Assembly: GCA_001724265.1 (NCBI GenBank)
Contig: MEDY01000274.1
Span: 1 to 41,665, forward strand
Reading direction: 5' to 3'
DNA length: 41,665 bases
Source of the DNA: Rhizaria sp. SCN 62-66
Taxonomy: Eukaryota
Of the stretch, positions 1,713-40,817 are shown piece after piece. A program made the position numbers and the translations under genes. Under the pieces are notes generated by a model, which worked only from the letters and a program-made list of their open reading frames with translations, had not been told where the DNA came from and did no database searches. The first letter of the stretch is position 1. Each line of letters begins with the position of its first letter.

Positions 1713-1968
1713 TGTTTTATAGCCGTTTGTGGTGGACAAGCTGGGCGCAGTGACCATGGTGATAATAGTGACCATGGTGAGTGAGACGTTGAGTCACCCC
1801 GATAAGAAACCCAAGATATATCATTGTAAGCGTTGTCAATCATCACCTCACTCGATCTATAGGAGAATATTGCTTTGGAAAATAATATACTGATATTATA
1901 TCTCTTATACTTGACGTTTGATTTCTAGCTGCACATCTTCAAACCTCCCAAAGCTGTGAGGTTGCGGG

Positions 1969-14599: not shown

Positions 14600-16855
14600 T
14601 CAACGCATCTGATAGGCAAGGTCCCAGTACTGCGGCACGCCGGCGCGCTCCATGAGGCTGCGCGCGGCGAGCGCGCTCCCCGCCCCTTCCATAGTAAAGT
14701 CACGGAACGCGCGCGCAGAGACGACTCCGCGCCAGACCGCGACGCAGTCTTTATGAGGCGTTGAACCAAACGCAGGGCCCTCGTTCTCACTGCTGCCTTG
14801 GCTGTGGCCGCGGTGCTTGCTGCCCTCGCCGTCAGCGGCGGCTGCGTTGTCGCCGTCAGCATCGCCGTCGTCGTCATCGTCGGAGTCTTTGTTGTCGTCG
14901 TCGTTGGCGGGGGCTTGGTCCCACTTGACACGGCGCGTCAGCAGCGCAGCATACTTCCGCAGCGCCGTGGGGTACCCCTCAACGACCACCACATTGCAGT
15001 GCGGCTGCAGCAGCGCCACGCCCGTCAGCTCGTACTGCTTCGCGTTCTTCTCCACTTTGAACCGGCGCCGACCGTCGGCCAGGTCGCCAACGCGGAACAC
15101 GCGCACTTCCAGCGACGTGCCCTCAGGGTCGGCCCACTTGCGCCGCAGCTTCTCCGCGCGCTGCTGCGGTGTGAGCTTGCGCGCCGCGTTGTTGGCGTTG
15201 TGCTCAGCCTGCCGCGCGGCGACCTGCTCCTTCGCTTTGAGCTCGGCCGCGGTCGGCGCGAGCACGGCGTCGGCGCCGGCGACGCGCATAAAGTTCTTCA
15301 GTGTGTAGCGCGGGGCAGGAACGGGCAGAACGCCCGCGCGGATGAGGTCCTGCGTCTCACGCGCACGCTCCTAGTCGATCGCGAAAAACAACCAAATGTG
15401 AGAATTTAATGATATAATGAGTGATCTTCAAGTTAAAATTTTGATATCAGATAAAAATCAACTATCGAATGATATAAAATAAAAGATGCGTGTAAATGTT
15501 ATCGTTAATGTCATCAAATCGCGTGTTGAAAGTGATTTGCCAAGGCGTACCTGGCGTTCGATGTGGCGGGCCTTGGCGCGCTCCGCGGGCGTCAGGATCA
15601 CAGCGGGCGGCGCCGTGGGCGGCAGGGGCACACGGGGCGCGAGGCGACGCGGATGCAGCACTAGCGCCGTCACCGCGCCCGGCTTCAGCGTCATACCACT
15701 AGGAATCGCACTATCACCAGCACTCGTCGTTGTTGCAGTTGAGTTCTCAGCACCATCAGCGTTCGTGTTGTTGTTGTTGTTGTTGTTGCTCTCGTTGACG
15801 TTTGTGGTGGCGATGGCGGCGTCCCACCACTCCATTTCAGGCACCGACGTCACCGCTGAGGCTTCAGTACCCGTGGCCACAGGTGCCGTCGCGCTGCGGC
15901 CGAGACTCGCCATCGTCACGGGCGCAACCCCCATCAGACTGCCCACAATGCGCCAGTCCACCTTGCCAGTGACGTCCCGCGCCTCCTTCTCCGCCGCAGC
16001 GGCCGCCTGTTCCACGCGCGCGCGGTGCATGCGCATCGCCGCGGCCTGGCGCGCGTGCTGGCCGGGTTCGCAAAAATTCAGCATCGGGCGGCGCGCGCGT
16101 GAGGGCGCCTTGTCGAGGGATTTGTCGATGAAACGGGCGCGCGCGGCGGCTTCGGCGGCGCGTTCTGCGGCAAGCTGCTCCTTGAGCTCCGCGCGCTTGC
16201 TAGAAGCGCCAACACTAACAGTATCATTCGCAGCGCTCGCAGCAGTTGCTGCGGTTGTAGCGGGTGCGGCCGCGGTGGAAACGGGCTTGACGGACGGACG
16301 GCGGGTGATAGCAAGCGAGTCTACGTCGACCACGTTGCCTTCGCTGTCAATCGCACGGCCTTGGGCGTCGAAACGGAGGATTTGCACTGGGGCAGCGGGC
16401 GCAGCGGGGGGCGCGGGCGCGGGCTGGCCGGAGAGCTTCGCCGCGAGAGCGCGCGCGCGGGCCAGAGCCTCGGTCGCAGCATCAGCCACAGGCGCAGTCG
16501 CAGCGGCAGCAGCAGAGCCAGCAGCGGTGGAAGTGGTACTGTTAGCGGTCGTAGCGGAGGACTTGAGCTGGGCAGCGAGAGCGGCGGCGCGGGCCTTGGC
16601 AGCCTCAAGTGTGGCCTGAATGTTCGCAGGGAGCGCGGTACCACCAGCAGCGGGGACAGCGGGGGCAGTAACAGGAGCAGGGAGCTGAGTAGAGTCAGCC
16701 TCTTCAATGCCGTCGTCGCTCTGGCCGTCGACCCGGGCGCGCTTGGGCTGTTGCTGCATCGCCGCGGATTGCTGCAAGGTCGACGCGTTAGGCGCGGAGG
16801 ACTCGGCGGCGCGCTTGAGGCCGGCGCCGCCCCCGGAGTCGGGGTGTGCGCTCAT
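14600..16855 (-). CDS. PRPF3: U4/U6 snRNP protein Prp3, 691 aa, 2 exons (16855-15551, 15370-14600)
   Basis: Intron 15550-15371 (GTACGC...CTAG) joins HIERQ|ERARETQDLIRAG. Prp3 signatures: VPEMEWWD, LVLHP, ILTPAERAKAR, TLKNFMRV, HNANNAARKLT, FKVEKNAKQYELTG, VVVVEG, RRVKW, CVAVWRG, GVPQYWDLA. Confidence 0.93.
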
Positions 16856-17362
16856 CTGAGGCGAAAACACAAGAGCGAGAATGGAGATGGATACCATGAG
16901 ACATAGCAGATATCTGTAAAAGAACAATTAAAGAATTAAGTACAAATGCATATTTTAAGTTCGGGGCAATCTATAAAATTCATGATGACGTTGGATCTCG
17001 AGCTGGACATCTTTCGTAAGATGAGTCTTTGATCAACGGACACCTCGCCAGTCCCCAGCCAGCCGCCACCAAGCCACAGCAAGCAACTCGCTTAATCTCG
17101 AACGAAAGTAGATACGGAGAGCCACGACAAAGACATATGCAGACAAAAGTTGAGAATAATATATGATGATACGGATGTATGTAGAAATCACAGGGTTTAT
17201 CCCCCTGCTTGCAGAATGAAAGTTCAATTTGTGTGTTTAATTACAACTAAGACTCAACCAACGGCAGGCGAACCTAGACACACCAGACCAACACAAACAG
17301 AATCAGTCGAGCTGCCATGGCTTACACCGCCGCATATGCTATCAAAGCGCGCGGAGTCGTAT

Positions 17363-18444
17363 TTAGTTGTAGAAGTCGGCGTCGGGTCCGTTGCGGTCGC
17401 CGCCATCGTAGTCGTCATAGTCGTCATAGGCGCCACTGCTCGACTTGCCAGTGCTTTTGAGCTGCGGCTTAGCAGACTTCTTCTTCTTGTTCTGCTGCGC
17501 CTTAGTCGTGTCGTTCTTGATAACGGTGCCAACGCGCACGAGCTCGGTCACGTCCTCGAGCTTCATCACGGGGCCTACCGCGAGCGTGACCTCCTTGAGC
17601 AGTGCGAGCATCACAGCAGAGTTGCCGCCGTCCTGCAGCTTGCGCGCGACGAGCTTCGCGAACGCCGCGGCGTCCTCCTTGGTGGCAAGCGAGACCTGGT
17701 CCATGACGGACGGCGGCGCCTGGCCAGTCACGCGCTTGGCGTTGGGGTCGTTGATGAGGCTCATGTTGTCGGCACCGTCGCCGAGACCGGAGGCGTTGGC
17801 GAGCTCCTTAGCACGCGCGGCCTTCTCAGCCTCGCGGCCAGACAGCTCAGCGTCGGCGGGCTTGGCCGCGCGCGGGGCGGTGGCGGCGTCGCCGAAGAGG
17901 TCCGAGGCAAGGTTGCGCTCCGATTGCTCGATGTCGCGCTTCTCCTGCTCCTTCTTCTGGCGCGCGTACTCGGGGTCAGCGCGCATCTTCTCCATCTCTG
18001 CACGCGCGGCGCGCTCGCGGGCGGCGGCGGCCTGCGCGCGCTCAGCGGCCTCAAGCATCTCGCGCTCCTTGGCGATCTGCTTCGGGGTCTTCTTGGGGCC
18101 GGCGGGCGCGGCGGCGGGCTTGGGCTTCGCGGCGGCGGCGGCGGCGGGGGCGGCGCCGGAAGGCTCGGCGTCCCACTCGTCCTCGACAGGGGCGTCGCCG
18201 GTGTCCTCGTTTGCGAACACGGGGGTCGGGGCAGAGTCAGCGATAGTCTCTGTAGAGGCGGGCAAATTACATGCAGAAGACATAACCAAGCACATGAAGA
18301 GAGAGACGTGAGAGGCGGAGTGATGGCGGGGAAGGCGGAGAGAGATGCAAGTCAGGGCGGCGTTTGATGGATAGATCGCGGTTGTAAGAGCAATCAAATT
18401 GTTAAATAATAGATGCGTAAGTACGTACCCCAGTCGTCGTCCAT
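17363..18444 (-). CDS. EIF3J: translation initiation factor eIF3 subunit J, 300 aa, 2 exons (18444-18429, 18249-17363)
   Basis: 16-nt first exon ATGGACGACGACTGGG followed by intron GTACGT...CTACAG gives MDDDWETIAD. Further signatures: acidic VEDEWD, IEQSERNLASDLFG, KKKKSAKPQL and an acidic C-terminus DDYDDYD...DFY. Confidence 0.88.
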
Positions 18445-18858
18445 GGTTCCTGTTTAACGTTCAAAAAGCCTAGAGCCTTTGATCAATCGATCCGGCCAAA
18501 CAAGGCCTGATCGTCACCGCTAAGGCCGCCACCCTTCACCGCTGCCCGACGCGGTTCGCGAAAAAACAGAGCGAGCGAGCTGCAACAGTAAACGAATTTT
18601 GAAAATTTGTCATTATCACCTTGCCATATAAGTCCGTTATTTGGAAATGCAGACGCAATGATAGAATATTGCATGCAGTTTTCTATTTTGAGATTTAACC
18701 AAATTTGTATCGATCCCGATCCCGCTTCAGTGCGCGTTGCGACAGTAAACTATCCGTTGTGTGCCCTCCTTCCCTCACCTGACCTTCCCTTGCCCTTCCC
18801 TGCCTGCGCGCAAACACTGGATCAGAAAGACAGCGTCTCACCATCACTTACAGCAAGG

Positions 18859-20577: not shown

Positions 20578-21973
20578 TTACTCGTTGTTCTCATCGCCCT
20601 GCTCATCCCCCTCGCCGCCATCATTATAGTCACCAGCGCTGCCGCCGCCGTTGTTGTTATCGTCATCGCCGGCGTCCCCGGCGTCCTCATTCGCGCCGCC
20701 ATCGTTGTTGTTATCGCCGGAATTGTTCATGACGTCACCGTTCATGACGTCAGTGCCGTCCTCGTCCGGACCCAGCTCGTCGCCTTCGCCCCCGTCGTCG
20801 CCCTCCGCGGCAGCCAGCTCTTCTTCCAGCGCGCGCGCCTCGTCGCGCTCGCGCTGCTGCTGTGCCTCAAGCGCGGCTTCCTCGGCCTTGGCCTCGGCGC
20901 GGGCAACTTCCTCTTGCGCCAGCCGCGCGGCGGCGGTCTCGGCGCGCTCCTTGGCCACGGCGGCGGCGGCGGCGCGCTCAAGCCCAGTGACGACGCGCGC
21001 GTCCACGCGGCGCAGCTGCGGCAGGAGCAGGAGCAGGGCGAGGATGAGCTCGTCGGGCTCCTCGAAGCGCTTGTACAGCGCGCGGTTGCGCTGCAGGATC
21101 ACAGTCGCGAGGTTCGCCAGAGGGGCGAGGGCGGCGAACTCGGCGGTGGCGGAGAGCTTGTTGTTGCTGAGGTCGACGGACTCAAGCAGCGGCAGCTTCT
21201 GCAGACCGGCGATGGACACGAGGCGGTTGCTTGAGACGTTGAGGTGGCGCAGGTTGGGGAAAACCTCGATGCCAGCGAGCGAGCTGAGCTGGTTGAAGCT
21301 CAGGTCGAGCACTTCGACTGAAGGGAAAGACACGCCGGCAGCGCGGAGATCGGTCAGGGAAGTGATGTCGTTGCGGCTCAGGGTGAGGGCAAAGAGGGAC
21401 GGGGCAGAGAACCCGCCGGCGGCCAGCGACACGATTGAGTTGTCATCCGCCTAGACAAAATAATAGAATATAATAGAATACACGGGCGGTGAAATAAATG
21501 TCATTTAAGCCAAAAAGAAGATTAAATATGCATTACAACGCAATAACTTGATTGACCACTGTTGAAAGAATGAGACGTGAACCTTGTCGATATATCGCGT
21601 ATTAAGTGGCGCGTATTAAGTGGCATGTGGAGGTGATTGAAGTAGTGAGACATACCTGAAGGACCTGGAGTGCAGTGCAGTTATCAAGCGCAGGAAGCGT
21701 CGTGATACGATTATGCTGCATATTAACCGTGACAAGCTCGGGCAGCGCCGCAAGCGCGGACAGCGATCCCGAGAGCGAGTTCTGCGAGATATTGACGTGC
21801 TTCAAGTGGCGGAACGCAGGGAGGTCACCGTCGAGAGACTGGACACCGCGCGCGATCAAGTCAAGCCGCGTGAATGCGACGCCGAGCCCGTCGGCGGTCT
21901 TCTCGACCTGGGACAGGCCCGTCTTGATCACCGCGGTCGTCAATGGCGGCAGCATCGCGGCGGCCTTCTCTTC

Positions 21974-22004
<31 letters not shown>

Positions 22005-22279
22005 CGCTCTGAGGCGGCCTGCTTCACAGCGGCCTCAAGTTCAGCGGCGTCAGCCAGCGGCACGAGGGGCTCCTTGGCGGGCTTGGCCGGCGCGTGAGGC
22101 TCCTGGCCGTCGTCGTCGCCCTCGTCGCCTTCGTCGTCGTTGTAGTGCTCGGGACCGGGCTCGGGGAAAGCGTTGCCGTCGTGGTCGTTGTTGTCGCCTT
22201 CGTAGGGACCGGCGTTGTTGTTGTCGTACGCGGGGTCGTAGCCCATCGCGGGCGCGTCGTCGTCACCCTCGTAGCTCAT
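20578..22279 (-). CDS. LRRC23: leucine-rich repeat protein LRRC23-like (axonemal), 498 aa, 2 exons (22279-21656, 21450-20578)
   Basis: PLTTAVIKTGLSQVEKTADGLGVAFTRLDL matches the LRRC23 N-terminal cap. It is followed by multiple LxxLxLSxNxL repeats and an LRR cap (LPQLRRVD), with acidic termini. Intron 21655-21451 is GTATGT...TCTAG, phase 0. Confidence 0.82.
21596..21624. repeat. 14-bp tandem duplication in the LRRC23 intron
   Basis: cgcgtattaagtgg twice. A separate 10-bp duplication (taatagaata twice) lies at 21461-21480. Confidence 0.75.
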
Positions 22280-23094
22280 GCTCAGGAGGACCTATCACAA
22301 CAGCGGCGACGGGAGCGGCTGGAGACTGTGTCTGCGTGTGTGTGCGTCGAGTGAGGTTGGGTGCTGTGGCCAGCGAGAGCGAAGCGGGTCACCAAGGACG
22401 TTGAAGAGGCGGGCTCAGAGAGACAAATGCGGCTGTGCAAGAAGTTAAGAGTTGGGAAAACCTATATCGAAGGCGAACCGAAACCAGAGACATAAGATAG
22501 AGGGACGGGAGTGAGGATTGGGTTTGAAAAGAGTCGGTGGAGCAGTGGCTTCCCAGCCCAGACGTTGATCAGTTTCCAGCCGGGTGAACGCACGATATGA
22601 AATACACAATTAAATGGGAAGATGCAATAAAGACGCACATGACATACTGTCGCGGTTGAATAGACAAATATGACGGAACCAGTGCGTGTGGAATCATTTT
22701 TTGGCAAGGCTCGACTCGGTTCAGAAACGGTCGGCTCACTTTTTTGCGAACCGCTCCTGCCCGTCCACCACCACCACCCACACAGTCAGCGAAGCAGAGT
22801 TTGGCACTTAAACGAGACGCAGCAGCCGCCAGTGTGGGTTGGGAGATGTATTATTAAACTGTTTTATGCGAAATGTTTGTGAGAACTCCTTGCTTTCTGT
22901 TTTCTTGCTTCTATGGCTTGCGTGACGGCGTATTTGCTTTGAGATTCAGTTGTGGACAAGGAAGGACCAGCAACCCGTCCCCCCTTTGTCTTTGCCGTCC
23001 AGCGCCCCTTAATCTTCACTCACGTTTTCCTTGTTCCGTTATCTTCTCCACCACAGGTCGCCGTTTCTCTCTCTGTGCACCCCCACGCTTTGGA

Positions 23095-26000
23095 ATGCAC
23101 ATGGACGGCGTCACCCCCCTTCGTGCTTGGGAGAAGCACAACAGTGGGGACGGTCCCGCGAGCGGCGCCTCTGCCGCTGCCTCGCGAGACCGCACACAGG
23201 CCCCGCCTCCCGGGCGGCGGTCTGCATGCACCCAGGTGTCTTCTCCCTTTCTTTCACCCCGTGTGTCCGCCCCGCCTTACCGGGGCGCTTCCCTGCTCTC
23301 TGCGCTCGCGCTGCTAGCCGTTCTTCTATGCTTCTCGAGCTCTTCTGTGCTCGCGACAGCACAAGAGCAGCCGCCGCAGCAGCAGCACCAGTTCGCGAAC
23401 CTTAACGCGCTGTATGACCTCGAGAGCGCCGCCCCTGCGCCCTGGGTTGCTACGATTGAGCGGTCCGCTCACGCTTCCGCCTTTGCAAGCGCTCACGCTG
23501 TTGGCTCCAGCTCTGGAGGTGCGAAGTGGGTCAGTCGCGACCAATTCACTGCCACTCCGCAGCCACAGGCCAAGCACAACAAGCGCAACGCCACGTCGCT
23601 CGGTGACGACGGCTCTAGCGACCCGGCTGCCCTGGCGGTGCTCTCGACCGTCTCAGCGCCGCCCGCGCTTGACCTGTCGACGCTGGCGATGCTCCAGGTG
23701 ACCGAGTCCGTGACGCACGCACAGGAGCTCACGATGCAGTGCTTTATGGAGCTCATTGTCGAGCCGCTTGCCGTGCTCGGCACGCCCGCGCTGGTGTCTA
23801 TCTTTATCAAGGTTCTTCGTAAGCTCTCCTTCCTCCTCATTGGCATGGCTCTGGCTCCAACTTTCGCCGAACCGATTCTGACCCCGATCGTCGAACGCCT
23901 CGCGCCGCTGCCCAAGACGGGCGGCGTCGGTAACTCCCTGGCGCCAATCCCCTACGATGGTTCCTCCGGTACCGGTGGTCAGCAGTACCCCGAACCGCTA
24001 GCAAACTCCCCCGGATACCTCAACGCTATGGAGCAGTCCCGGTCTGCCATGACGGCCAGTGACGCCGAGACCAAGGTTTTCGGGTCTAGCTCTTCCACGA
24101 TGTCGATGCCACCGAACCAGCACATGACTGACTCGGCGCTCTGGTCGCGACTCGACCGCGAACGCACCGGTACCGCCACGCACGAGCTCTTATCGGCCGA
24201 TCTACGGTCCATGGCACAGTGGGCCGAGCTGGCGCAGCCCAGGCTCTGGCCAGGGTTCGCAGGCTTCCTCTCACCGGCCGAGTGTGCGACGAACGTGCTT
24301 CTCGCGGTGCAGACCCGCGGCAAGCCCGGTATGGTAAAGACGGAGTGGCAGCGTGACCGCTTCGGAATCTTCACCCAAATGCGGCTGCGCGGCGCTGAGT
24401 TCGCGGGCGTGCGCAAGAACCGCATCAACTCGTCCAAGGAGCTGCAGAAGCGGTGGCCGCTGATGACGCTGCTGGATCTCCGGCACATGCAGAACGACTG
24501 GCAGCTGCTGCCGCTCGTGCTGTGGCGCATGCTCGACCCCACGGCGACCGGCGTGACGCAAGGGGACGCTGTGACGCGCGTGTTGCGGGACATCTGGGGT
24601 CGGCCTGACCCCGAAATGGAGGACCTAACCCCCGGTGCGAAGGCGCAAACGAGCAACTCCCTCTCCACAACGCCCGGGTTTGTGTTCGGCCGTGTGTATG
24701 AGGCGTGCATTGTGCGGCTGACGAAGCCCACGGTGAAGCGTCTCACCACCGCGTTCCAAGACCCCAAGTCGTCGTTTAACGGCATCGGACAGTCCTACTT
24801 TATCCGTAACTTCCAGGTACGTTTGTGTAATTTCACAAAAACAAAGATGTCTCGACACCTAATGAAATTCGGAGAAAGATGTCATGTAAATGCTTTAAAG
24901 CAAATGTTCATCTAATTTTTTATGATGTATTTTTATGTATGTATCCTTATTTATAGGAGTTTGTGCACGAGGCGCACCGCGTCAAGGCGATCTGCGCCGA
25001 GAAGCAGCGTCTCTCCGGTCTCGGCCTGCCCATGCCGGCCGGTCTGGCCTCTGTCGTGCCTCTGGGCGCCGACTCGGCGTCTCTGTGGCGCCGGTACGTC
25101 GCGTCCCCGCAGTGGGTGACCAAGCGCGGGACGGAAGTTAGGTCGCATGCCGGCGACCACGGTCTCCCCCCAACGATGAAGCCGGCTGACGCGGGCAGTC
25201 TCGTGAGCAGTGATGTCGCCGAGCGCACCAAGTTCCTGCCCAAGGCCTCGGTCGCCACGGCTCTCATTCTCGAGGCCGAGCCCGATGAGCACGTCACCAA
25301 GACGATCACGAACGCGGTTGCCAAGAAGCTTTACGAATGCACTGAACAGGAGGCCAAGAAGACCTTTGCCGCGCGCGCGCTGGTGATGGTCGCTGGTTTG
25401 ACGGATGAGGAAGCGAAGCGGGATAATGCGCAGTTGACGCGGACACAGTTTGACGTCTCGCCACACGCGCTCATCACTCTCGGCAAGGCTCTCCACCAGG
25501 TGCGTGGATATTTCGAAACAATATGAACCCAAACATTCACAGCTTAAACAAACAGACGCTTTTAATTCTGAATTATATTGAAAATTACTAAACCCGGTCT
25601 ATTTTTCGCATTCTCACCCTGATATTGCACATTTATTCTCGATCTTTGTTTTTGGTTCGCATCATAGGTGTGCCTGACGCGTGCCCTAGCCGGCACGATC
25701 CCGTCCGACTCTGAGATCTTCCTGCTCTGGGAGGTCTACACCGGTGGCGTCGACACCCTCATCGGCTCCATGACGCGCCAGTCCATCGAGGCCGGTCTCC
25801 GCCGTTTGCTCGAAAAGGCCGCCGCCAAGCACTCCCCTCTGGCGCGGCCGCAGCACAACGCCGTCCGCGCGTGTCTGGAAGCGCATATCCCGGGGGCCGC
25901 GGTCAACGCGCTGGCTACGCTCAAGCCGCACTCACGCGAGCCGGTGCTAGGGGCGCGGTATCGGGACCACGAGTGGTATCTGAAGCCCTCGCCCCCGGGC

Positions 26001-29000
26001 CCCAAGGGGCCAGGGGTGATTCACGAGCGCGTTGTCTTCACCGAGCTTGACACGGAAATTACGTTGCAGTCTGATGCCGACGCGGACTCCGACGCGGAGT
26101 CACTGCTTGAGGTCGACTCCGAGTCTGGGATGGACTTTGAGCTCTATTCCGAGTCAGAGTCGGAGTCAGAGTCTGGCTCTGGTTCTGGTTCTAATGCAAT
26201 CTCTATGTCTCGCGACATGTTCGCGGCGTCCCGCGCCCGTATCCAGGCCGCGACGGCTGCGAACCGCAAGCGTCTGGACAACGCGGCCCGCGTCGGCCTC
26301 GGCGTCGACTCGGCCAACTACTGGCAGCTCTTCCGCGGCGCCGCTGCGTTCAAGGGCGTCATCGACGCGCTCGGGCTCCTCTGCGCCGCGCCCGCGATGC
26401 CGCCCGCGGCCGCCGACGACAAGTGCCCCGCGCGGGCCGTCGCGCGCCCCGGCGAGAGCGCCGAGGACCGTGAGCGCCGTCTCAACCGCGCCCGCACCGA
26501 GCTACGTCAGGCCTTCACGCGCTTCGACCCGCGCGGCCAGGGCGCGCTGCCGCTGCGGCCCTTCACGTCGATGCTCGCGGCCGCGGTCACCGCTGCGGTG
26601 CATAACCCGCGGCTGTTCCCCGAGGTGCAGCAGCGGACGAAGCAGATCGGCAGTAAGGAGCTGCGCGTGCTCAAGGGCTGCATCAAGGAGCAGAGCCGCA
26701 CGCACGGCCAGGTGCTGTTTGCGCGGTACTTGCGTCTTGGTGACCCGCTCTCGCTGCCGCTGACGGGGCCCGGCTCCGGCGCCGCGGCGCTGGCGGCGCG
26801 CGACTTGACGTTCCCGCCCATGCGCATGGAGCCGCTGTGGTTCCGCCACACCGTCTGCGCGATCGCGCACAGCTGCGTCAACGCCATGGGGCTCGGCGAC
26901 GACGGACCGCAGGGGCTCACCGTGCAGCAGCTATTGCATTTGCTGTGGATGCGCACTCTGCGCGTGATGTCGGACATCAACCGCGCCAATGCGCGCGTGT
27001 TGGTCGCTAAAACGGCCCGCAAGCGCTTCACACGCGCTGCGCAGGAACTCTTGAAGATTCTCGCTCCCAAGTTCCTCTCGCAGCGCGCGGAAGTGCTCGA
27101 CGCTGCCGGCCGCTCCGCGCGCGGACTGCTTGCGTCGCAGTACATCGTCAGTCAGGACATGATCATGCGCCGTCACCCCGGTGCCATCGCGGCCGCAGCT
27201 TCCGCGCTCGCCACCGGCGCTATCTTGGACACGTTCACGAAGCGCAACCGTATGGCGCGTGCTTGGACGACGTATGATCCGTCGCGCACGTTCAAGCTGC
27301 AGCAGCCCGCGGTGGAATCAGCGCTGCACTCGAAGCTGGACCGGCCATGCACGCAGCGCATGAAGGCCGGCGAGGACGGGTTTGACATTGCGCGTGACCA
27401 GGCGTGCCAGTGCGCGCGCAAGCGTGTGCCTGCCGCGGCGCGCGAGATGCGCAATGATCTCGACCGTGATTCCAAGGGGTACATCTCGGCGGAGGATTAC
27501 TTCCTCTCGTACACCGATCCCGACGCGTTCGACATCAAGGCGAGTAAGCTGCTGCAAGAGTGCGCCGCCCGTGTCGCGCGCTCCGCCGACGACATCGCTG
27601 CCGAGTACAACGCGTTGGCCCCGATCACCCCGCGGTCGATCGAGATCAACTGGGAGAAGCGTATCCGCTCCTCTCAGTGCCAGGAGCCCGGTTGGCCGCA
27701 CATCGCCAAGTGCATGCTGCCGCGCGCGCCCAAGGACGCGCTGTCGGTCGCGCTGGATCTCGTCGCGCGCGACCCGTCGCACACGTCCAAGGCGGGCGTC
27801 AGCAGCGGCGGCGGCCGCGGGGGCCACGGCGGCGGCGTCGTCGTGTCGATGCCTGGCTTCAGCGCAAACCCGTACCTCATCCGTGACGGTTACGCCGCGC
27901 TGGCCGCGCAGTGCCGCGAGACGACTGATGTCCGGGCCGCCATCGCGCGCGACACGGCGGTGTGGAAGATCTTCGCCGAGGACCGCAGTGTTATTATTAA
28001 CACCGACGTCGAGCGTGTCATCTGCATGCGGCTCGCTAAGCTCGCTGGCCTCGAGGCCGCGGGCCCTGTGGTCAACTCGTTCCTCGCGCTGGGCGAGACG
28101 CTCAGTGCACGCGCGCGCAGTGGCGCCGTCCCGGACTCGGTGTCGTTCCTCGAGGCCGGCACCGAGCTCGCGGCCACCCACGTCGCCGCTGTGGACGCCT
28201 CGAGTACCACAGGCACCGAGTCCTTCACCGCGCACTCCGCGCAGTCCCCGGCCGCCGCCGCTGTCGCGACGCCAGTGCTCGCGTCGCTGGCGACGCTGAC
28301 CCCCGCGTTGCGCGCCACTGCCGCCTGCATCTCCCGCGGCGCGCGCGTGACGGCGAAGCAGGCGATTGTGCGCGTGGACCACTCCATCCGCGGGCCGGTC
28401 CGCGGGCGCATCGAGAGCCACGGCCAGCTGCAGGCGCTCGGCGACGGCCGCGTCACGCGCTGCGAGTTCGACTCGGCGCCACGCGCGCTGGACGAGACGA
28501 TCGACGAGCTCTTCACGCAGTGCGGTGCGCAGCCGACCAACGACGCGCGCCGTGTTATGCAGGCGTATACGGAGCCCGGGCAGGAGCCTGAGCAGGCGTC
28601 GGTCTCCGCGACCGTGCTCGAAGAGCGGTACAACGAGCAGGTCGAGCAGGCGCGTGCCGCCGTGCGCGCGCGCCGTGACGCCGCCGTCGCTGCGTACCAG
28701 AAGGCGTCGTACACGCCTAGTCACACCGCCCAGGTCGACGGCCGCGCGGTGCCTGTGGACACGCTCAAGGACGACGCACAGGCGCGCACGCTGGCGCTGG
28801 CGCAGTTCGAGGCCGTCGCCGAGTGCGCGCTCGATCTCACTCGCAAGGCCGCGAAGCAGGTTATCCACGGGATGGTGCTGCATGTCGAGGGCGTCGACGC
28901 GGTGCTGTCCGCAGCGTCCGCGTCCGACACGGGCAGCGGGTCATTCGCCGAAGAAGCGGCGTACATTACCACGCTTGCCGACGCTGTGGGCTTTGACGTG

Positions 29001-31196
29001 TCTTCGCCGTCGCTTGTCGAGGCGATGGCCCAGCGCGCGCGCGCCCCGCGGCCGCTGTTCACCAGCGGCGGCAAGCGCATTCTGGCCGTGGACATGCGCC
29101 ACGTCACCGCGCTCCCCTACGCGCTGGCCTCGGGCGCCAAGAGCATCATGCAGCGCTGCGAGCTCGCGACCAACACGCGCGTGCACCGGCTCTGGATGCG
29201 GTACGCGCCCGCCAAGTCGACCTGGGAGACGCGCATGCGGCTTCGCACTGCAGCGGCCGCCTCAGCGGGCTCCGCGGCGAGCACGATGTCGTGGCTGGCG
29301 GAGGCGGAGCGCAAGCTCGACGCGATGGCGAGCGCGGAGCACGGCCCCGCCGCTGATATCGACGAAGAGCGCGTGAAGTTCATCCCGCGCGATGTTGTCG
29401 AGGAGATGCTCACGCGCATGGTCGCCTCGGCTGCGAACCAACGGCTCGATACTGACGAAGACGATGCTGTCGCCGCCGCAGCCCGCAAGGAGCGCGCGCG
29501 TCAGGGTTATGCCTCGTTCCTCGAAGCCGGCGCCGGCCTTGGCTCCGAGTCTGATCCCAGCACCGCGACCGGCGCGCAGCACATGCCCGGCTACGCACTG
29601 TTCGCTCGGTGCGTGCGCAGCGGCATCCCGGCGGCTACGGACCGCGTTCTGGCGTATTTCCTGCCCAAGGGCGCGGTCAACGACGTCACCCAAACGCCCT
29701 CAGTGCGCGCGACGCTGCTCTCAGCCGCGCAGGCCGTCAGCAACACCACGGACGCACAGCTGCCGAACTCGCACCAGACGCAGCGTCTGCTTGACGCCGC
29801 GGCGCGCGCCGGCCGGATCGAGTACCGCGACTGGCTGCGGCGCCAACTGGGGCCGATGCACATCCCGCTTGACCCGCCGCACCCGTGGGGGCAGTCGTGC
29901 CCCAACTTGGCCGCCGTCTTCTCGGGCCCCGCCAACGACGCCGCGGCGGACCGCAGCGACGTATTGGCGTCGGCAGTGCTGTCGGCGGCCCGCTCGCTCG
30001 CCGCGCGATGCGACGCCAAGGTGAACTGGGGCGCGCTGTTCAACGAGATCATCCACCGGTCGCTGGAACCTTTGGGCGCGAGTACCGGCAAGCGTCCCTC
30101 CCCGTTCATGGACATGCAGTACCTGAACCCGCGGGAACCCTTGGATCCCAACGACAAGCACGCGTTCCGCGAGAACTCTGCACTGCACCGTGTCGTGCCC
30201 CCCGAGCCCGTGGACCTGATCGCTACCACAGCGCGTTGGGCCACGGCTGACCCCATCCGTGCGGCCGCCGTCGATGCCGCGGTCGACAACCCTCCTGGCG
30301 GCATGCCCTCTGTCACGGGTGCACTGGGTGTGTCACTGTTGAGCGTGAGCGAAGTGCGCGCGGCGTCGGTCGACGGCGCGGCCGCGGCGACTCTGCTGGG
30401 TCTCCGCAACGGCGCCGCGCCCGCCGCACCGGGCACCACGGTGTTCGCCGAAATGTCCTCCACAGTCAGCGCGAGCGCCGCCGCGGCCATGAGCGCGGCG
30501 CCGCCGCTGCCCGCCGTGGACAACGACATGGGTCCACTTGTTGCCCGCGTGTCGCAGGTCATGGGAGACGCTGCGTCGGCCGGTCTGGCTGCGGGGCTCC
30601 AGGCGTCGCTGCCGGATAACCTCGTCAAGGTGACAAATAACACCGTCTCACGTGTGACCGCACGTAAACTGCTCAAGTCGCTCACGGTCTCGCTGACCGA
30701 CTCGCTGACGGCGACGCTGCTGCTCGCGATCTCGCGCCCGCTCGTGCACCACACCACTCGCATGCTGACCCACGCGCTCACGCCGGCGATCATGTACCCG
30801 GCCACGTCGATCATCGCGCGCGCGCTGACGCACAACCCGCGCGGCGACTACTACTGCTGGTACTGCGCGACGACGGGGCAGACTGCGCCCGCGCCCGGGC
30901 AGCAGGGCGTGCCGCTGTATTGCGACTATTGCCAGCGTGCGCAGGAGTACAACTACAACATCGACTATTACGCGCAGTATTTTGCGCGGCACTACACGAG
31001 CTATTATGCGGAGTTCTACTCGAATGGCGCGGGCATGGAGGATATGATCCGGCTCAGGGACCCGATTCTGGAGGAAATTCTCAACATCTCTGGTTCGGAC
31101 CCTGTTATCGTGCAAAAGCAGCTCTACGGCAAGAACGAGACCAGCAACGGCAGCACTGCGCCGGTGCCGGACGTGCAGGGCGGCGGCCAGAGTTGA
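23095..31196 (+). CDS. giant predicted secreted protein (~2,597 aa) with degenerate EF-hand modules and a Cys/Tyr-rich C-terminus; 3 exons (23095-24816, 24957-25499, 25668-31196)
   Basis: Two phase-0 AT-rich introns (24817-24956 GTACGT..ATAG; 25500-25667 GTGCGT..ATAG) join three ORFs. Signal-like segment SLLSALALLAVLLCFSSSSVLA at ~23290-23360. Near-canonical EF loop DRDSKGYISAED at 27462-27497. The start could be 23095 or 23101. Confidence 0.85.
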
Positions 31197-31626: not shown

Positions 31627-34600
31627 ATGAACCCTAATGTCGGCATCTCGCCGGGGCGACATTCGTCACTCAAGGGATCGCCTCAAAGCACAGTGGCGCC
31701 CGACACATGCGTCTCGTTTGCAAAGGTAATAAACCACCGCCCTCTGGTACGTCCAAATAAACTATACTATATGCTTTTTGTTTCAAGTGCGCTGAACGAG
31801 ATCTCCGCTAACTATCTACCCCTCTCGTTTTCTTCTGCAGGCTGTTTCTGAGCAAGTACAGGGCGGGCTCTACTCCCTCAAGCGCTCGACCGTCGGTCTC
31901 GAGCGTCTCGCCCAACTTCTCTCCCGCGCCGGCTCCGCGCCATCCCTCGCCAAGTCTTTCCGCGACACGCAACTCGAGCGTGTGCCCGCCGATAAGCGCG
32001 TCAAGTTTCCTGACTTGCTGGCGCCGTTCGAGCGTGGACTGCAGGCCGGCGAGGAGTCGATTCTCACCGTCGTCACCGCCACCGCAGTCATGGTTGAAGA
32101 GGTCCAGCGCCTCATTGTTGCGCCAACGTGGGAGTTTTACACCGCCGCGCAGGCACGCCGCAAACGCATTGAAGCCGAGGTACGTCCGCCAATGCTCAAA
32201 ACCATAGCAAAGTCGCAACTTGAAGTTTAAATGAATCCTCCGAGTCTCCTTTCACAGTCTCGCTCTGACAAAACGCGTCACATCATTTTTTGCAAACTTA
32301 TCCTTGACATTTTTGACTTTTGCTTGTTTTCTTTAGATTCTGCGCAATGAGGCTATCATGAAGCAAAGCGCGGCGGCCCTGGACAAGCAGCGCACCGAGT
32401 GCCGGCGTCACGTCTCAGCCCTGGCCGCTATTCAAGTCTTGGAGGCATCGCAAATGCATAAGCAGTCGCTGCTGCCGCGCTCCTTTAACAACAACAGCAA
32501 CGCCAACGCTAGCATGACTGCGAATGCGAGTTCTGGCAATAATAACAGTACACCGGTGTCGTCCCTCTCGTCAGTCTCGAACTCGGCCGTCGAGGCTGAG
32601 ACTGTTACCACCGCGACTGAGGCTGCTGGAGTCGCTCGTGACAGTGACTCCACCGCCACTGCTGCTGCTGCTGTAACAGCCACGCGCGCGCGCTCAGGCT
32701 CCGGCGTAGTCTCGGTCTCCTCCCGTTCCACCCCCAGCCTCGAAGCTAGTGCCGCGACAGCGAACGGCAATGATAATGGTAGCTACAAAGACACTGCTGC
32801 AACTGCTGCTGCGGTAAAGGTGTCTAAGAAAGAGCGCCAAGCGCGTGACCGTGCGCACCGTGCCCTCCGCAGCTTCTGCGCGTCCCTCGTCGCCGCGCGC
32901 GCCCAACAGGCGCGGATCCTGCGACAGGAGCTGCCGCGGCAGCTGAGGACGCTAGAGTCGATCGAGCGCGCGCGCATGGAGCTCACGACGCGATCGTTAC
33001 AAACCGTACAGGAACGTCTATATGAACACGAAACTATTGAAAGCGTTATTTAAATGTGAATTACAATGTATTTTACGTGTATACCGCATGAATACTCTCT
33101 TTTTTACTAAATAGTCCCATCTGTAATGTGTTGTTGCTGTTTTTATGTTTGTTTTCTTTCTGCGCAGGCGTTGCTGCAGCAGATGCAGGGCGAGACCCGC
33201 GCCGCGTTGAGTAAGTGCAGCCTCGCGGCCCGCGGCATGCAGCAGCCTGAAGACGCACTCCGTGGCTTAACTAAGCGCTGGGTCATGGCCCACGGTCCCC
33301 CCTCAGCCGCCGCCGCCACTAATAGCGCGGGCGCAGGCTTGAGCTGGGTGAGTGAGACGCTGCCGTACGGGGTAACGTGTTCCCCCGCCGCGGCGCTGCA
33401 CGGGGTAACCGATGACCTTGCGTACGGCGCGCGTGCCACGGGTTCCGGCGTCGCTGAGCTGGGTGAGTCGAGCGCGTGGATTCATGAGGAAACCGCCGAG
33501 CTCTCAGAGGACTCTGACAACAACGGCGCTGTGAGCTCTAACACGAAGGCTTCAATGACGACTGCGATTGGTGGCAAGAGCGATGGGAGCAAGAGCAGCC
33601 GTTTGCGCGAGAAAGAGCTTGAAGACGTGTTGGCGTCGCTAGCAGGCTCTGCGTCGGCATCGCGTTCGGTGACGAAGCTGCTGCTGCGCCAACGCGAGCA
33701 ACACAAACATCAACAACAGCAACAGCAACAACAGCAGCAGCAGCGTGGTGGCGCTCTCTATGCGGCGCCGGTCTCCGGCCACAGTGGCTCTGACAGTAAC
33801 TGCGACAACGCAGTGCAAGGCTCGGCATCAGCCTCAGCCTTGTCCTCGGGTTCCACCGCTGGTTCTGGCTCTGGCTCCTCTGCGGTTGCTGCCAACAACG
33901 GTGTCAGTGCGGGTGTCGTGACCGGCGACTGTGAGAGCGTTGACAGCGACGACTCCGGCGTCTCCCGCATGCGGCTTGACGTGTTTCTGGCCGACTTAGA
34001 CCCTGTCGCGGAGGACTATCACGACAACAACGACGGTGAGAATACTAGTCGCAGTCGCGACACCAGCGACGAAGCCGACGCTCTCACACCACAGCTGCGC
34101 CCCCTCTGCGCCGTCGCCGCTCCTGCTCCTGCCGCTGCTGTTGTCAATACTGCAACCGCTTCGCATGATTCCGGCGCAGCTGTCGTCTCCGTCGCGAGTG
34201 AGACCGAGGCGGTGGGTGGTGGGCAACGCAGTCGCGGTGCGAGCTCAACGCTGCCGCCCTCGGCAGCAGCCACAGTCGTCATTGGCAACAAAACCAACAA
34301 CAACTGCACTGTGCAACAGACAGCTACGATGGGCGCCAGTGCAGCGGGCTCTGCCACTGGCGGCGGCTCACTGTACACAGTGTCGCTGCAGAGTGAAACG
34401 TGCACTTCCGGTGCGTCTGCAAGTCCGCGTGACTCACCAGTACTTACGAGCACGCCAGTACTCGCTCACGCGGGACCTGGCGAGACCAGTCACGCGTTTT
34501 ACAACCAAGCTACGAGCAGCAACAACGCCAGCAACAACAGCTTTGCGCAGTCGCCGCTGATGACGCCAGTCGCAACTGTGATGCAACAGATGCAGACCCA

Positions 34601-37600
34601 ACGCCTCCAGCAGCAACAGCAGCAGTTTGGCCAGAGGTCGTCACATGCGCAGCTGCTTCCGGCGTCACGGGGCCAGACCCGCGCCCGCTCGTCGTCGTTT
34701 GTCGGCACCACACTGAGCCCGATCATGTCCGCGCCCAACAGCGCGGACACCACCGCAGCCACCACCGCAGCCGCGGCCGCCGCCACAGCCGCCGCCACGG
34801 CCACGGCATCACCGCCGACTGGAGCAGCGGCGGCGGCGAGGGCGGGGACGGGGGCAGAGCCGCCAGCGACTCCGGGCAAGCGGCAGGCTGAGGCGGTGGC
34901 GGCGGCGGTGCTTTCGAGCCGCCGCCGGTCCAACACGGTCTCTGACTGGTCGCCGCCGTCTGCGGTCACAGGCAACACGGCCACCGCTGCTGTAGTCACG
35001 GCAAGAACGGTGAATGTCGGCACCGCGGGTGCGATGGCTGCGCTGGGCATGTCGCCGCTGTGCAGTCAAACATCTTCTATCGCGCTCGTAGTCCAGCAAC
35101 AACAACAGCTAGCACAGCAGCAACAGCTTTCGCAGCAGCAGCAGCAGTGGGGCTCGCCGGCCCGTGGCAATTCGTCTTCATCGCCGCACCAACAGCATTT
35201 CATGTTGCATCATCAGCAACAGCAGCAACAACAGCAAGGGGCTTACAGTACGCATGGTACGCCTGGCGAGATCAACGGTGTGAGGCTGAGTCAAATGCCG
35301 CCGACGCCGCCACTGCGCGCCGCCAAGACCGTCCAGCCCGCGATTGGTCACAATAACGTTAGTGGTGGCAACATCATCAGCACGAGTTTCAGTGCGAGCT
35401 CGAGAAGTCTGAGCGCAAGTCCTGGTAACAGCACCACGTTTGCGTTGCTGCAGCACCAGCAGTCGCCGTCGCCGTCACCGCCACTGTCACAAGGAGGGCC
35501 GCACTCGCGTCTCGCTCTCGCGCGCACTCTGCCGACGCCGTTGCCTCACAGCGTCGCCGCGGCGACGGCAACTGGAGCTGTTTCTGGTGGCACTGCTGTT
35601 GCTGGTGCTGATGATGCAGGGGCAAGAATGCAGTCGTCGCGGCTGCGCGCATCGTCAACAGCCTCGAGCACCAGCTCAGCGCCGACGCTCACGGTCACAC
35701 ACGCCAGCATGGGTACGACATTCGCGGCGCTGGCACTGGCTCCGCAGTCACTGTTGCACGCGCACTCGCACGCGCAGGCGCAGGCGCAGGCGCAGGCGCA
35801 GGCGCAGGCGCAGCACTCGCAGTTTCAGGCGCAGTCTGCGATGGGCGCTGCGTTGGCGCCGTCGATCGTCGGCACGCCTATCGGTACACCACCACCGGTA
35901 GTCCGCGGACCCACACTGATTGCCAACAACAGCAACAATAGCAATAACAGCAGCTACAACGGCAGCAATACCTTGGGCTCTGGCATTGGTGCACTTGGAA
36001 ATGCTACGACTGCGAATAGTACACTTGTAAGCAAGTCACCAGTGCCTGGTTTTAGCTTTGATTACCCGCCGTACGTTGTGCCAGGCTTCCACGCTGCTTT
36101 TGACAACAACAATAACGGCTACATCAACGCAACCGCGGCGACTAATCTCGAACACTCAGGCTCTGCCGCGTCATCGTCGTCTCTTAGTAGCAGTGCGATT
36201 GCTACTGCGGACAAGCCAGCTGACCTTGCAGCGTCGTCTGCAGTGACGGCGGATGCCGGCTCTGCAACGGCAGCGGTGGCGCTAGAACGCGTGGCGAGCG
36301 CGTCGACGCGTGCGCAGACGCCGCTGCAACAGCAGATCCTAGCCTCGGTTTATGCGTCACTGGCAGGCATCGCAGCGTCGCCCGCCGCCGCCAACGCTGC
36401 CGCCGCCAACGCTGCCGCCGCCGCCACTGGCGCGTCGCCGTTGCCACAGCAGCACCGGCAGCTCACAGTGTCATTGCACGATCAGCTCTTGCGCTCCCCT
36501 CTCGGTCAATTGCAGCATCAGCAGCAGCAGCCTGTAAAGTTTGCGAGTCTGCCGGGTGCGCTCCCGCAGACGCTCACAGGCAACATCGCAACTGCGACGG
36601 CGAATGCAGCTGGCGCAAGCGCATCGAGTCCAGAGAAGACGGGGCGGCCGCGTTCTATGTCCGTCTCCGTTGCATTCTCACCCAACTCCAACCACATCAC
36701 TGGCGGCAGCAACAGCAGCAGCAGCTCAAGCGCTAACAATGCTAGCGCTGCGCTTATCGGCGGCGCTGGCGTCTCGCCGCTGCTGCCGCTGCAGCCGCCG
36801 CTGTTGTCGCCGCCGCAGCTGCTCCCGCAGGCCACTCTCGGCGCACTGCCGCTGACGTCGCCGTTGATGCGCTCACCGTCGCTCACTGCGCACCTACAGC
36901 CTTTCTCAGTGACACCACAACAGCAGCAACCGCTGCTGCAGCAACAGCAGCAGCCGTTTGGCGCAAACCCCGGTGCTGCGTTGCTGTCCCCGCCGCATCT
37001 GCTGCCGCAGTCATCCTGGTTCACCCCGCAGCTTTCTGTGAACATGCCCTACTTGCAACAGCAGCAACAACAACTGCTGTCACAGCAGGCGCAGCTACAG
37101 TCGCAACATGCTGTCGCAGCTGAGCTTGCACTGTTACGCCGCCAGATGGCTTCGCTGGAGGCGCGTCTCTGCGCTGCCTTGCCGTCAATGGGCTCACTTG
37201 CTATGGGGTCATTGCCTCCAGCGTCATCAGTCTATGTGGCGACACCCGACCTTGGACCGCCTGTGTTCTCGCCGACCCTGTCTCAGTCTGCATTCGCGCC
37301 TGTGCCCGGTCTAGCTGCACAGCCGTCATTGTTGCCGCAGTCCCTGCTGTCAACCGGCGCTGGCACTGGCACGGGGATGTTTGAGTCAAGTGTCGTCACC
37401 GTCGGCGGCTGCGGCGTCAATGCCTGCGCCAGTGTCAGCAACAACAACAACAGCAGCGGCGCAGCGATGGCAACGCGTCGTGTCCCTGCAGCCACCCCCA
37501 ACGCCGCCACTGCAGGCCTCGCGACAATCACACCTGCAAGCACAAACGCAGTCGCGGTGCCGACTCAGCCCCACTCCAGTGCGCGTGCCGGCGGCGGCGG

Positions 37601-40600: not shown

Positions 40601-40817
40601 GAGCACGCTGCGCACGCAGCTATTGGCAAATGACACTGCTGTCATTGTCTCTGTGGGCGCCAGCAACGTGAGTCCTGGCAGTGATAATAGCGCGAAGACT
40701 GCGGCCGTGGCTGCTGGCGCTGGTGCTGGGGCCGACGCCAGCACTGCTGCTTCGGTGATAGTGGCCAAGGAAGGGCCAAAGCGTCAAGCGCCCACAAAGC
40801 CGCCCACAAGGTGGTGA
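31627..40817 (+). CDS. F-BAR (FCH)-domain protein with very long low-complexity C-terminal region, ~2,918 aa; 4 exons (31627-31725, 31841-32179, 32337-33005, 33168-40817)
   Basis: Three phase-0 GT-AG introns join the ORFs. The helical N-terminal part has F-BAR-like features: LIVAPTWEFYTAAQARRKRIE, ELPRQLRTLESIERARMELTTRSL, TKRWVMAHGPP. The remainder is Q/A/S/N-rich. The gene model is stronger than the domain call. Confidence 0.7.
35772..35813 (+). repeat. perfect coding hexanucleotide microsatellite (GCGCAG)7 encoding (AQ)7
   Basis: Seven perfect units counted in the sequence. Confidence 0.9.

Follow-up and report, generated by a model that had tools for sequence, protein, structure and literature searches.

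A Ser-Phe/Leu-aliphatic-Glu motif in a giant putative secretory precursor and across its environmental eukaryotic protein family: candidate maturation sites resembling those of plasmepsins IX/X and ASP3

Introduction

Plasmepsins IX (PMIX) and X (PMX) of Plasmodium and ASP3 of Toxoplasma make up clade C of the apicomplexan aspartyl proteases (PMC8540915). In the available text of PMC9804387, the consensus site is SFhE for PMX and SFLE for PMIX, with Ser at P2, Phe at P1 and Leu/Val/Ile at P1', and PMX cuts after Phe. The available part of PMC9352755 gives NFLD, IALE and SSIE as the self-cleavage sites of PMX, together with alternative sites that are 7 residues apart. For Toxoplasma, the accessible portion of PMC5595437 writes the sites of ROP1 and ROP13 as SFVE/APVR and SFTE/GTNE (the slash marking the cut) and denotes the rhoptry pro-peptide site as 'S-phi-X-E'. 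These four sources, as far as their texts are available, describe the code only for apicomplexan parasites. Here, we analyzed a gene for a giant protein, in which motifs of this kind recur, on contig MEDY01000274.1 of the assembly GCA_001724265.1 (Rhizaria sp. SCN 62-66). The whole stretch of DNA analyzed (41,665 nucleotides [nt]) is referred to as the window, and all coordinates are on its forward strand.

The initial annotation of the window had listed nine peptides of this protein (AMLQV, SLLEV, SFLAL, SFLEAG twice, SFAEE, SLVEA, SLLSV and VFAEM) as recurrent S-phi-x-E/Q motifs, and read them as a processing code analogous to that of apicomplexan secretory organelles, the published sites of which (ROP1, ROP13 and 'S-phi-X-E') are indeed of the type stated there (PMC5595437, available part). 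An aspartyl protease is also reported to act on secretory precursors in the ciliate Tetrahymena, where the aspartyl cathepsin CTH3 is needed in proprotein processing in the mucocysts (PMC4142616, in the part available), and sortilin-type receptors sort the granule cargo of the same organism (PMC3824020, likewise).

Results and discussion

The motif is enriched across a protein family

To collect the family, residues 1390-1842 encoded by exon 3 of the window gene (see below for the gene structure) served as the query of an exhaustive HMMER search. At least 202 cluster representatives were retrieved at E ≤ 1e-3 and at least 66 at ≤ 1e-10. The retrieval was not driven by the motif, because most of the family alignments begin after the position of VFAEM, the last of the nine peptides. 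Ten rows were dropped beforehand: the window's own products, its close orthologues with their fragments, two duplicate fragments, and P0128, a member with immunoglobulin (Ig) domains. The test set then comprised 147 proteins with 81,030 residues. Throughout this study, expected counts were derived from amino-acid composition and P values are Poisson probabilities.

S[FL][LVAI][EQ] occurred 110 times in the 147 members against 25.8 expected (4.3x) and was present in 70 of them. Seven of nine control patterns (D/N, K/R or S/T at position 4; T at position 1; I/V at position 2; reversed; two permutations) fell within 0.70-1.45x, and the control with [AVG] at position 1 reached 2.19x, which fits a tolerance of A and V at this position. 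Outside the family, 120 PRP3 proteins contained 21 matches against 18.9 expected (1.1x). The family-wide enrichment is independent of the first choice of the pattern and is decisive for the motif being non-random.

Dissection of the motif in the family set indicated that all four positions are needed jointly. SxxE, TxxE and DxxE were found at 1.07x, 0.90x and 0.86x, respectively, and the replacement of either or both of the hydrophobic positions by polar residues left no enrichment (S[FLM][polar]E, 0.89x; S[polar][LIVT]E, 0.72x; S[polar][polar]E, 0.93x), against 5.5x for S[FLM][LIVT]E. The enrichment at position 1 was 4.3 for S, 2.7 for A, 2.2 for V, 2.0 for M, 1.4 for T and 0.66 for D. The values at position 2 were 8.6 (F), 2.9 (L) and 2.5 (M), those at position 3 were 6.8 (L), 5.8 (I), 4.9 (T) and 3.4 (V), and those at position 4 were 5.5 (E), 2.6 (P), 2.5 (Q) and 1.4 (D). 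In the raw counts at position 2, Leu was nearly as frequent as Phe (57 vs 53). The profile of the family (S; F>L,M; L/I/T/V; E>Q) thus matches SFhE, SFLE and S-phi-X-E essentially position by position, with Thr at the third position included.

The same profile bears on a reading of the motif as a phosphorylation site. S-x-x-E is an acidophilic kinase consensus and S-x-E is the site of a secretory-pathway kinase, so that the Ser of the motif might be a phospho-acceptor, and an SESESE spacer in the window protein a cluster for the latter enzyme. In favour of this, position 1 prefers Ser, position 4 prefers Glu, and the spacer at 26115-26204 is rich in S-x-E. However, A and V can replace S, which is impossible for a phospho-acceptor, and hydrophobic residues are required at +1 and +2, as the flat S[polar][polar]E count demonstrates. 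We regard phosphorylation as a very unlikely explanation.

The motif precedes a conserved C-terminal domain

The members share a domain in the last ~190 residues, which has the following elements in the window protein.

30510-31067 (+): conserved C-terminal domain, with a helix of ~100 residues showing LTxSLT periodicity, two CxxC pairs and a Tyr-rich helix
30849-30866 (+): YYCWYC, within the C-terminal domain
30918-30932 (+): YCDYC, within the C-terminal domain

The signature of the domain consists of a long LTxSLT-type stretch, HxLxRxPxxDYYCxYC, YCxxC and a DYYxxYYxxYY tail, and the Cys, Asp and Pro columns were invariant or nearly so in the alignments A1 and A3. Per 1,000 residues, the 113 members anchored at the aromatic-CxxC element had 2.4-6.4 motifs in the interval 125-250 residues upstream of the anchor, 0.2-0.5 far upstream and 0.5-0.95 inside the domain, against ~0.3 expected from composition. 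By a looser pattern, 67 of 89 members had a match 100-230 residues upstream of the anchor. The spacer between the motif and the domain could not be aligned across the family, and the region upstream of the motif is hydrophilic.

AlphaFold2 (AF2) on A1 predicted a single helix of ~100 residues, a short helix, a loop with the Cys pairs and a Tyr-rich helix (mean predicted local distance difference test [pLDDT] of 83 and predicted template modelling score of 0.49). In the AF2 model of 30270-31193, the long helix spanned residues 88-187 with a pLDDT of ~89-96, and the stretch ahead of VFAEM was disordered (pLDDT <50, residues 44-54). Hydropathy indicated no transmembrane anchor after the Tyr-rich helix. 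The PDB sequence searches with the profiles A1 and A2 gave nothing significant (a best E of 0.048 in one, none at E ≤ 0.1 in the other), Foldseek of the C-terminal model against PDB gave no match at E ≤ 0.001 (long-helix matches being meaningless), and ESM Atlas gave no usable match for the C-terminal part.

The model also bears on a structural role of the motif, either at the start of a helix (as an S-x-x-E capping box accompanied by hydrophobic residues) or as the first turn of an amphipathic helix, which would recur in helix-rich proteins. In the same model, a helix (57-76) begins at T-VFAEM after the disordered stretch and SLLSV precedes another (26-42); across the family, T/V/L are enriched at position +4 after S. 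On the other hand, the capping-box form fails on the unenriched SxxE, TxxE and DxxE, and the residues enriched at position 1 include the non-capping A and V and exclude T and D. At +1 and +2, where the preferences are strongest, the motif favours F and L/I, respectively, which are not known as typical N1/N2 residues of helices, and the helix at VFAEM was predicted with a pLDDT of only 50-70. A structural motif is therefore, in our judgement, distinctly improbable, although less so than phosphorylation.

Neither the C-terminal domain nor the rest of the window protein had a Pfam match. Pfam scans of 25 members detected EF-hands in four (P0011, P0017, P0018 and P0032), a teneurin-like EGF domain in one and Ig domains in P0128, and nothing in the remaining 19. 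The A1 profile found at least 6 proteins in the word-indexed protein collection. A scan of metagenome loci added at least 22 distant members (25-35% identity), with no new close orthologue among the matches listed, and the members translated from these loci showed the same motif arrangement (SFLQM, SLAEL twice and VLLET twice). The related loci came from seawater, microbial-mat and other metagenomes, and the sources of the 20 members looked up (of 22 cluster members listed) were JGI/IMG, Logan, ENA and NCBI. By a crude hydropathy rule, 48 of 120 members of at least 300 residues start with M and a strongly hydrophobic N-terminus. Altogether, sequence comparison defines what is, by prediction, a new family of secreted proteins with a conserved C-terminal helical module, the shared architecture of which comprises a putative signal peptide, a variable N-terminal part, the motif in a hydrophilic variable spacer and the module itself.

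As for the surroundings of the distant members, five contigs (L002, L004, L006, L009 and L011) are gene-dense, apparently intron-poor eukaryotic DNA of 39-49% GC, on which MUS81 (1,097 residues), kinesin (1,436 residues), NAP, DnaJ, a Ste24-type protease, Myb and a tetraspanin are encoded by one-ORF genes (ORF, open reading frame). There was no lineage marker among the genes adjoining distant members on the metagenome contigs.

The window gene is a single spliced gene

AMLQV is encoded by an ORF at 22873-24915 (frame 0) and the other eight peptides by an ORF at 25668-31196 (frame 2). The two ORFs are exons of one three-exon gene and not two genes, because GT..AG introns separate them and both introns are skipped in cDNA/RNA contigs.

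23095-24816 (+): provisional model of exon 1, which starts at the first in-frame ATG upstream of the hydrophobic segment and ends at the CAG/GT donor; the ORF is open from 22873
24817-24956 (+): intron 1, 140 nt, GT..AG, phase 0, AT-rich, 5' site GTACGT
24957-25499 (+): exon 2, 181 codons, collinear with P0156 and P0154 (see below)
25500-25667 (+): intron 2, 168 nt, GT..AG, phase 0, AT-rich, 5' site GTGCGT
25668-31196 (+): exon 3, 1,842 codons and the stop

The skip of intron 1 was exact in X10, and the same joint was found with one mismatch in the polyA metatranscriptome X5 and in X4. One X8 contig skips intron 2, with 69 nt on its shorter side. PolyA-RNA contigs map onto the gene, and the spliced gene is consistent with transcription. 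The spliced product from the ATG at 23095 has 2,597 residues with no stop.

Several side observations were made on this gene. Both introns are short and strikingly AT-rich compared with the exons at 60-70% GC, and prokaryote-style gene calling reports two ORFs of 680 and 1,842 residues here, which are exons of the one gene. One polyA-RNA contig of X5 matches the window only from 23657, preceded by 255 unrelated letters, which a paralogue, chimerism of the contig or an alternative exon further upstream might explain. At 27512-27845, a depth spike and many loose ends were seen in all four runs over a GC-rich simple repeat (GCGGCGGC-type), which draws in contigs of other organisms and is not a feature of the giant-protein gene.

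Homologues and the putative secretory signal

One relative, a fragment of 1,389 residues with 56% identity, came from a word-indexed search. Two full-length homologues were obtained by cluster look-up, namely P0156 (2,576 residues, 55% identical over 2,461 aligned positions) and P0154 (2,483 residues, 28% identical). A canonical signal peptide, MSLSVILFFAFVALLAAAPGALA, stands at the N-terminus of P0156 and aligns with a hydrophobic segment of the window protein, ASLLSALALLAVLLCFSSSSVLA.

23287-23355 (+): signal-peptide-like hydrophobic segment ASLLSALALLAVLLCFSSSSVLA, followed by TAQEQ; hydropathy peak 2.19
23740-23880 (+): conserved hydrophobic Pro-punctuated segment (…ELIVEPLAVLGTPALVSIF…PILTPIVERLAPLP), ~20 residues after AMLQV

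The second segment was considered as transmembrane helices, a candidate dropped on account of its counterpart in P0154, which is not hydrophobic. In some of the small members (P0070, P0078, P0093, P0097, P0117, P0118, P0123 and P0147), too, a hydrophobic Pro-punctuated segment (phi-phi-x-P-phi-phi) comes 20-35 residues after the motif. The giant protein thus looks like a small member, the N- and C-terminal modules of which may have been parted by ~2,100 inserted residues.

The motif sites in the window protein

All of the nine peptides translate exactly where the initial annotation had placed them. They are given below in the order of the coordinates, with the residues at the aligned places of the two homologues, one further site that was not in the first list and the spacer next to SLLEV.

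23686-23697 (+): AMLQ(V), relaxed variant at the end of the N-terminal region of ~110 residues; AMLQV in P0156, TLLQL in P0154
26034-26045 (+): VFTE, further relaxed motif not in the first list; VFTEL, identical, in P0156
26100-26111 (+): SLLE(V), strict, at the start of the acidic/Ser spacer; AEVEA in P0156, SFLEV in P0154
26115-26204 (+): acidic/Ser/Gly low-complexity spacer DSESGMDFELYSESESESESGSGSGSNAIS, indel-rich in the three-way alignment
28077-28091 (+): SFLAL, conserved hydrophobic patch without E/Q; SFLAL in P0156, absent in P0154
28143-28154 (+): SFLE(AG), first copy, strict, in an Ala/Ser/Thr-rich linker; VFLES in P0156, absent in P0154
28941-28952 (+): SFAE(E), strict; TDAQA aligned in P0156, where the same linker has SFAE ~9 residues upstream; linker missing in P0154
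29010-29021 (+): SLVE(A), strict, 23 residues after SFAEE; TFIEA in P0156, linker missing in P0154
29514-29525 (+): SFLE(AG), second copy, strict; SLLE in P0156, DLLA in P0154
30333-30347 (+): SLLSV, conserved patch without E/Q; SLLSV in P0156, absent in P0154
30441-30452 (+): VFAE(M), relaxed, 136 residues upstream of the CxxC anchor; VFAEM in P0156, MFLQT in P0154

The S-phi-x-E/Q rule holds for part of the list: five of the nine are strict S[FL][LVA][EQ] motifs, AMLQ and VFAE are relaxed, and SFLAL and SLLSV have no E/Q. By sequence and the three-way alignment, the sites lie in Ser/Ala/acidic low-complexity or indel-rich linkers. In agreement with the initial annotation, the last one precedes the C-terminal domain, VFAEM being 24 residues ahead of the conserved domain. 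The position of VFAEM is that of the peak of the family-wide motif density, and 87 gap columns lie upstream of it in the alignment. Downstream of the first SFLE, 6 of 25 residues are identical, with 12 gap columns. Most sites have indel-rich flanks, and the sites therefore behave as short linear motifs would in linkers that join conserved blocks. Paired sites in the protein are 22-23 residues apart. RRLLE at 25800-25814 matches RxLxE, which we take to be the form of the PEXEL/TEXEL export motif, and was dropped as a site of that kind because it lacks conservation, MMRLV standing at the aligned place in P0156.

In exon 3, S[FL][LVA][EQ] was observed 5 times against 0.42 expected (P 7.8e-5), SF[LVA]E 3 times against 0.05 (P 1.8e-5) and SFLE twice against 0.01 (P 8.9e-5). 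In the spliced protein, S[FL][LVAI][EQ] was found 5 times against 0.75 expected (P 0.0011). These P values are soft, because the pattern was chosen after the data had been seen. P0156 and P0154 contain 3 strict motifs each, against 0.57 and 0.59 expected, respectively, and four other long ORFs in the window had 0, 1, 0 and 1 matches against 0.22-0.77 expected.

The single-protein counts are where chance, in the form of an Ala/Leu/Ser-rich composition and a free choice of the pattern after inspection, has the most to say. The first list mixes strict and loose variants, and the looser patterns barely exceeded expectation in exon 3, with 9 vs 4.58 for S[FLVIM]x[EQD] (P 0.044, weak) and 8 vs 4.73 for S[FLVIMA]x[EQ] (P 0.11, weak). 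Against this stand the strict motif in the spliced protein, the excess in the independent family set with its flat controls, the PRP3 control, the positional peak and the unenriched long ORFs of the same window. We find chance hardly credible as an explanation, the least probable of those considered here.

Weighing the processing reading

Proteolytic maturation is the best reading of the motifs, because their profile matches the published sites and many members, P0156 included, begin with a signal peptide. We give about an even chance to the motifs being endoproteolytic maturation sites of the secretory route. That they are read by a pepsin-type enzyme like PMIX, PMX or ASP3, as the residue profile suggests by analogy, is a more tentative proposal and somewhat doubtful. 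The window gene would then be best explained as encoding a secretory precursor of ~2,600 residues, a giant member of the family with the motif repeated in the linkers between its conserved blocks. Such a precursor would enter the endoplasmic reticulum, where or beyond which an endoprotease of the secretory/endosomal route would recognise the motifs. The precursor would thereby be split into a pro-piece at the N-terminus, several pieces from its centre and the helical module at the C-terminus. The step common to the family would be the release of the C-terminal module from the variable N-terminal part.

Alternatively, the motif might be a short linear signal that is bound and left uncut. It could serve in sorting or aggregation, read by a cargo receptor during transport to a storage organelle, or it could be a docking site through which the C-terminal module assembles. 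Selection on four residues in an exposed spacer by a conserved domain is what the statistics show, and they are silent on hydrolysis; sortilin-type cargo sorting in Tetrahymena offers a precedent (PMC3824020, in the part available). However, the residue profile coincides with the subsite profile of the proteases position by position, and processing accounts better than a single sorting tag for multiple and paired copies in the linkers of so large a multi-block protein. We consider an uncut signal unlikely, albeit less so than a structural motif.

Several points count against proteolytic maturation. The members are related to one another, so that the 110 occurrences are not independent, although the control patterns share this bias and yet stay flat. 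A motif-like form is found at the aligned place in all three full-length homologues for just two of the nine listed sites. The hydrophobic segment of the window protein starts 64 residues after the first ATG and hence is no textbook signal peptide. The low-confidence helix that VFAEM opens in the AF2 model leaves room for a structural role. No match to PF00026 or to any other protease was found in any scanned ORF of the window. On the side of the published systems, the ASP3 N-terminome gave no obvious consensus for ASP3 sites in the available part of PMC5595437, and the scissile bond differs between the available texts, lying after the P1 Phe in PMX (PMC9804387) and being written after Glu for ROP1 and ROP13 (PMC5595437).

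Thus, the processing code proposed in the initial annotation is retained in part. The motif is non-random, is kept or re-created in the orthologues, sits in the linkers of a probable secretory protein and has a family profile close to SFhE, while four of the nine peptides on which the proposal had been based are loose.

Comparison with described systems

The substrates of plasmepsins IX/X (e.g., RAP1) resemble the family as secretory precursors with a four-residue site of Ser, Phe (or Leu/Met), an aliphatic residue and Glu/Gln, with Glu at P2', and closely spaced alternative sites occur in both. In contrast, the family has no sequence relationship to the known substrates, as judged by the lack of a Pfam or PDB match, and carries the motif at a fixed architectural place before a family-specific domain. 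With the Toxoplasma ASP3 substrates, the family shares the S-phi-x-E site of the pro-regions of secretory-organelle proteins and the tolerance of Thr at the third position. The family profile is sharp, unlike the ASP3 N-terminome mentioned above. In addition, Toxoplasma substrates have single pro-peptide junctions close to the N-terminus, whereas the sites of the family stand before the C-terminal domain and recur along the giant protein.

The mature parts of ciliate granule precursors are helical, and we know of no SFhE-like code in ciliates. The precursors of ciliate dense-core granules (Tetrahymena proGrl and the Paramecium trichocyst matrix) are comparable in being secreted precursors, the proteolysis of which precedes assembly in an extrusive organelle (PMC4142616, in the part available). 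The Pfam scans of the window protein and 25 members gave no Grl/TMP match, and no direct sequence comparison with Grl/TMP was made. A further difference lies in the standard genetic code and the GC-rich coding sequence of the window. A literature search found nothing joining ASP3, Chromera and ciliates.

Tyr-rich pieces are cut from the coccidian wall precursors GAM56 and GAM82 of Eimeria. In class I viral fusion glycoproteins, a hydrophobic segment, then a long helix and a Cys pair come after a cleavage site. The likeness to both is architectural only, and that to the latter concerns the member subset and the N-terminal module of the window protein, in which the motif, a hydrophobic Pro-punctuated segment and a long helix are combined. 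The family differs from both GAM56/GAM82 and the fusion glycoproteins in that there is no sequence or fold match, and in that no anchor follows the Tyr-rich helix.

The host contig

The source is an uncultured wastewater eukaryote: 11 rows with part of the window were found in bioreactor, wastewater and activated-sludge metagenomes from 7 studies, the DNA runs X1-X3 among them. The contig is eukaryotic, because an intron-split PRP3 gene, an eIF3 subunit and a leucine-rich repeat (LRR) protein are present. The window uses the standard genetic code with a coding GC of 60-70%. The best matches of the PRP3 C-terminal ORF were 31-38% identical, the named ones being of animals, plants and a fungus, and ESM Atlas placed PRP3 at the level of 'Eukaryota' only. 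Rfam and tRNA scans of the window gave 0 matches.

14603-16927 (-): PRP3, in two ORFs with Pfam matches abutting at profile position 155, making a short intron near 15371-15460 likely
17366-18460 (-): eIF3 subunit (PF08597)
20581-22291 (-): LRR protein, two ORFs
1960-12384 (+): giant Ala-rich ORFs of 610 and 2,864 residues
33111-40814 (+): giant Ala-rich ORF of 2,568 residues

The giant ORFs at 1960-12384 and 33111-40814 are almost domain-free, with only sub-threshold DEAD and Helicase_C in the first, and showed no motif enrichment.

Implications

The gene model is corrected to one spliced gene instead of two ORFs, and a candidate secreted family with a confidently predicted long-helix C-terminal module is defined. 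As the motif is a property of the whole family, the observation is stronger than a reading of a single sequence could show. The S-F-h-E code of plasmepsins IX/X and ASP3 is a drug-target pathway. To find the same four-residue profile, at a fixed place, in a Pfam-less family of environmental eukaryotes gives a testable handle on the origin and the first use of such a code.

One broader view, which we offer as speculative and unlikely as a whole, is that an SFhE-type code exists beyond parasites and serves as the common architectural hinge of a large, environmentally widespread secreted family, the cut freeing a C-terminal helical module that self-assembles or inserts into membranes. If this is true, the family (found in wastewater, seawater and microbial mats) would belong to protists without annotated genomes, and the cut would expose, N-terminally in a subset of the members, a hydrophobic segment joined to a helix of ~100 residues, Cys pairs and a Tyr-rich tail. 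The module might then act, for example, as extrusome matrix, as cyst or wall material, or as a fusogen- or pore-like effector of a free-living predator, and the processing code of apicomplexan rhoptries and micronemes may have originated in free-living ancestors or in other lineages.

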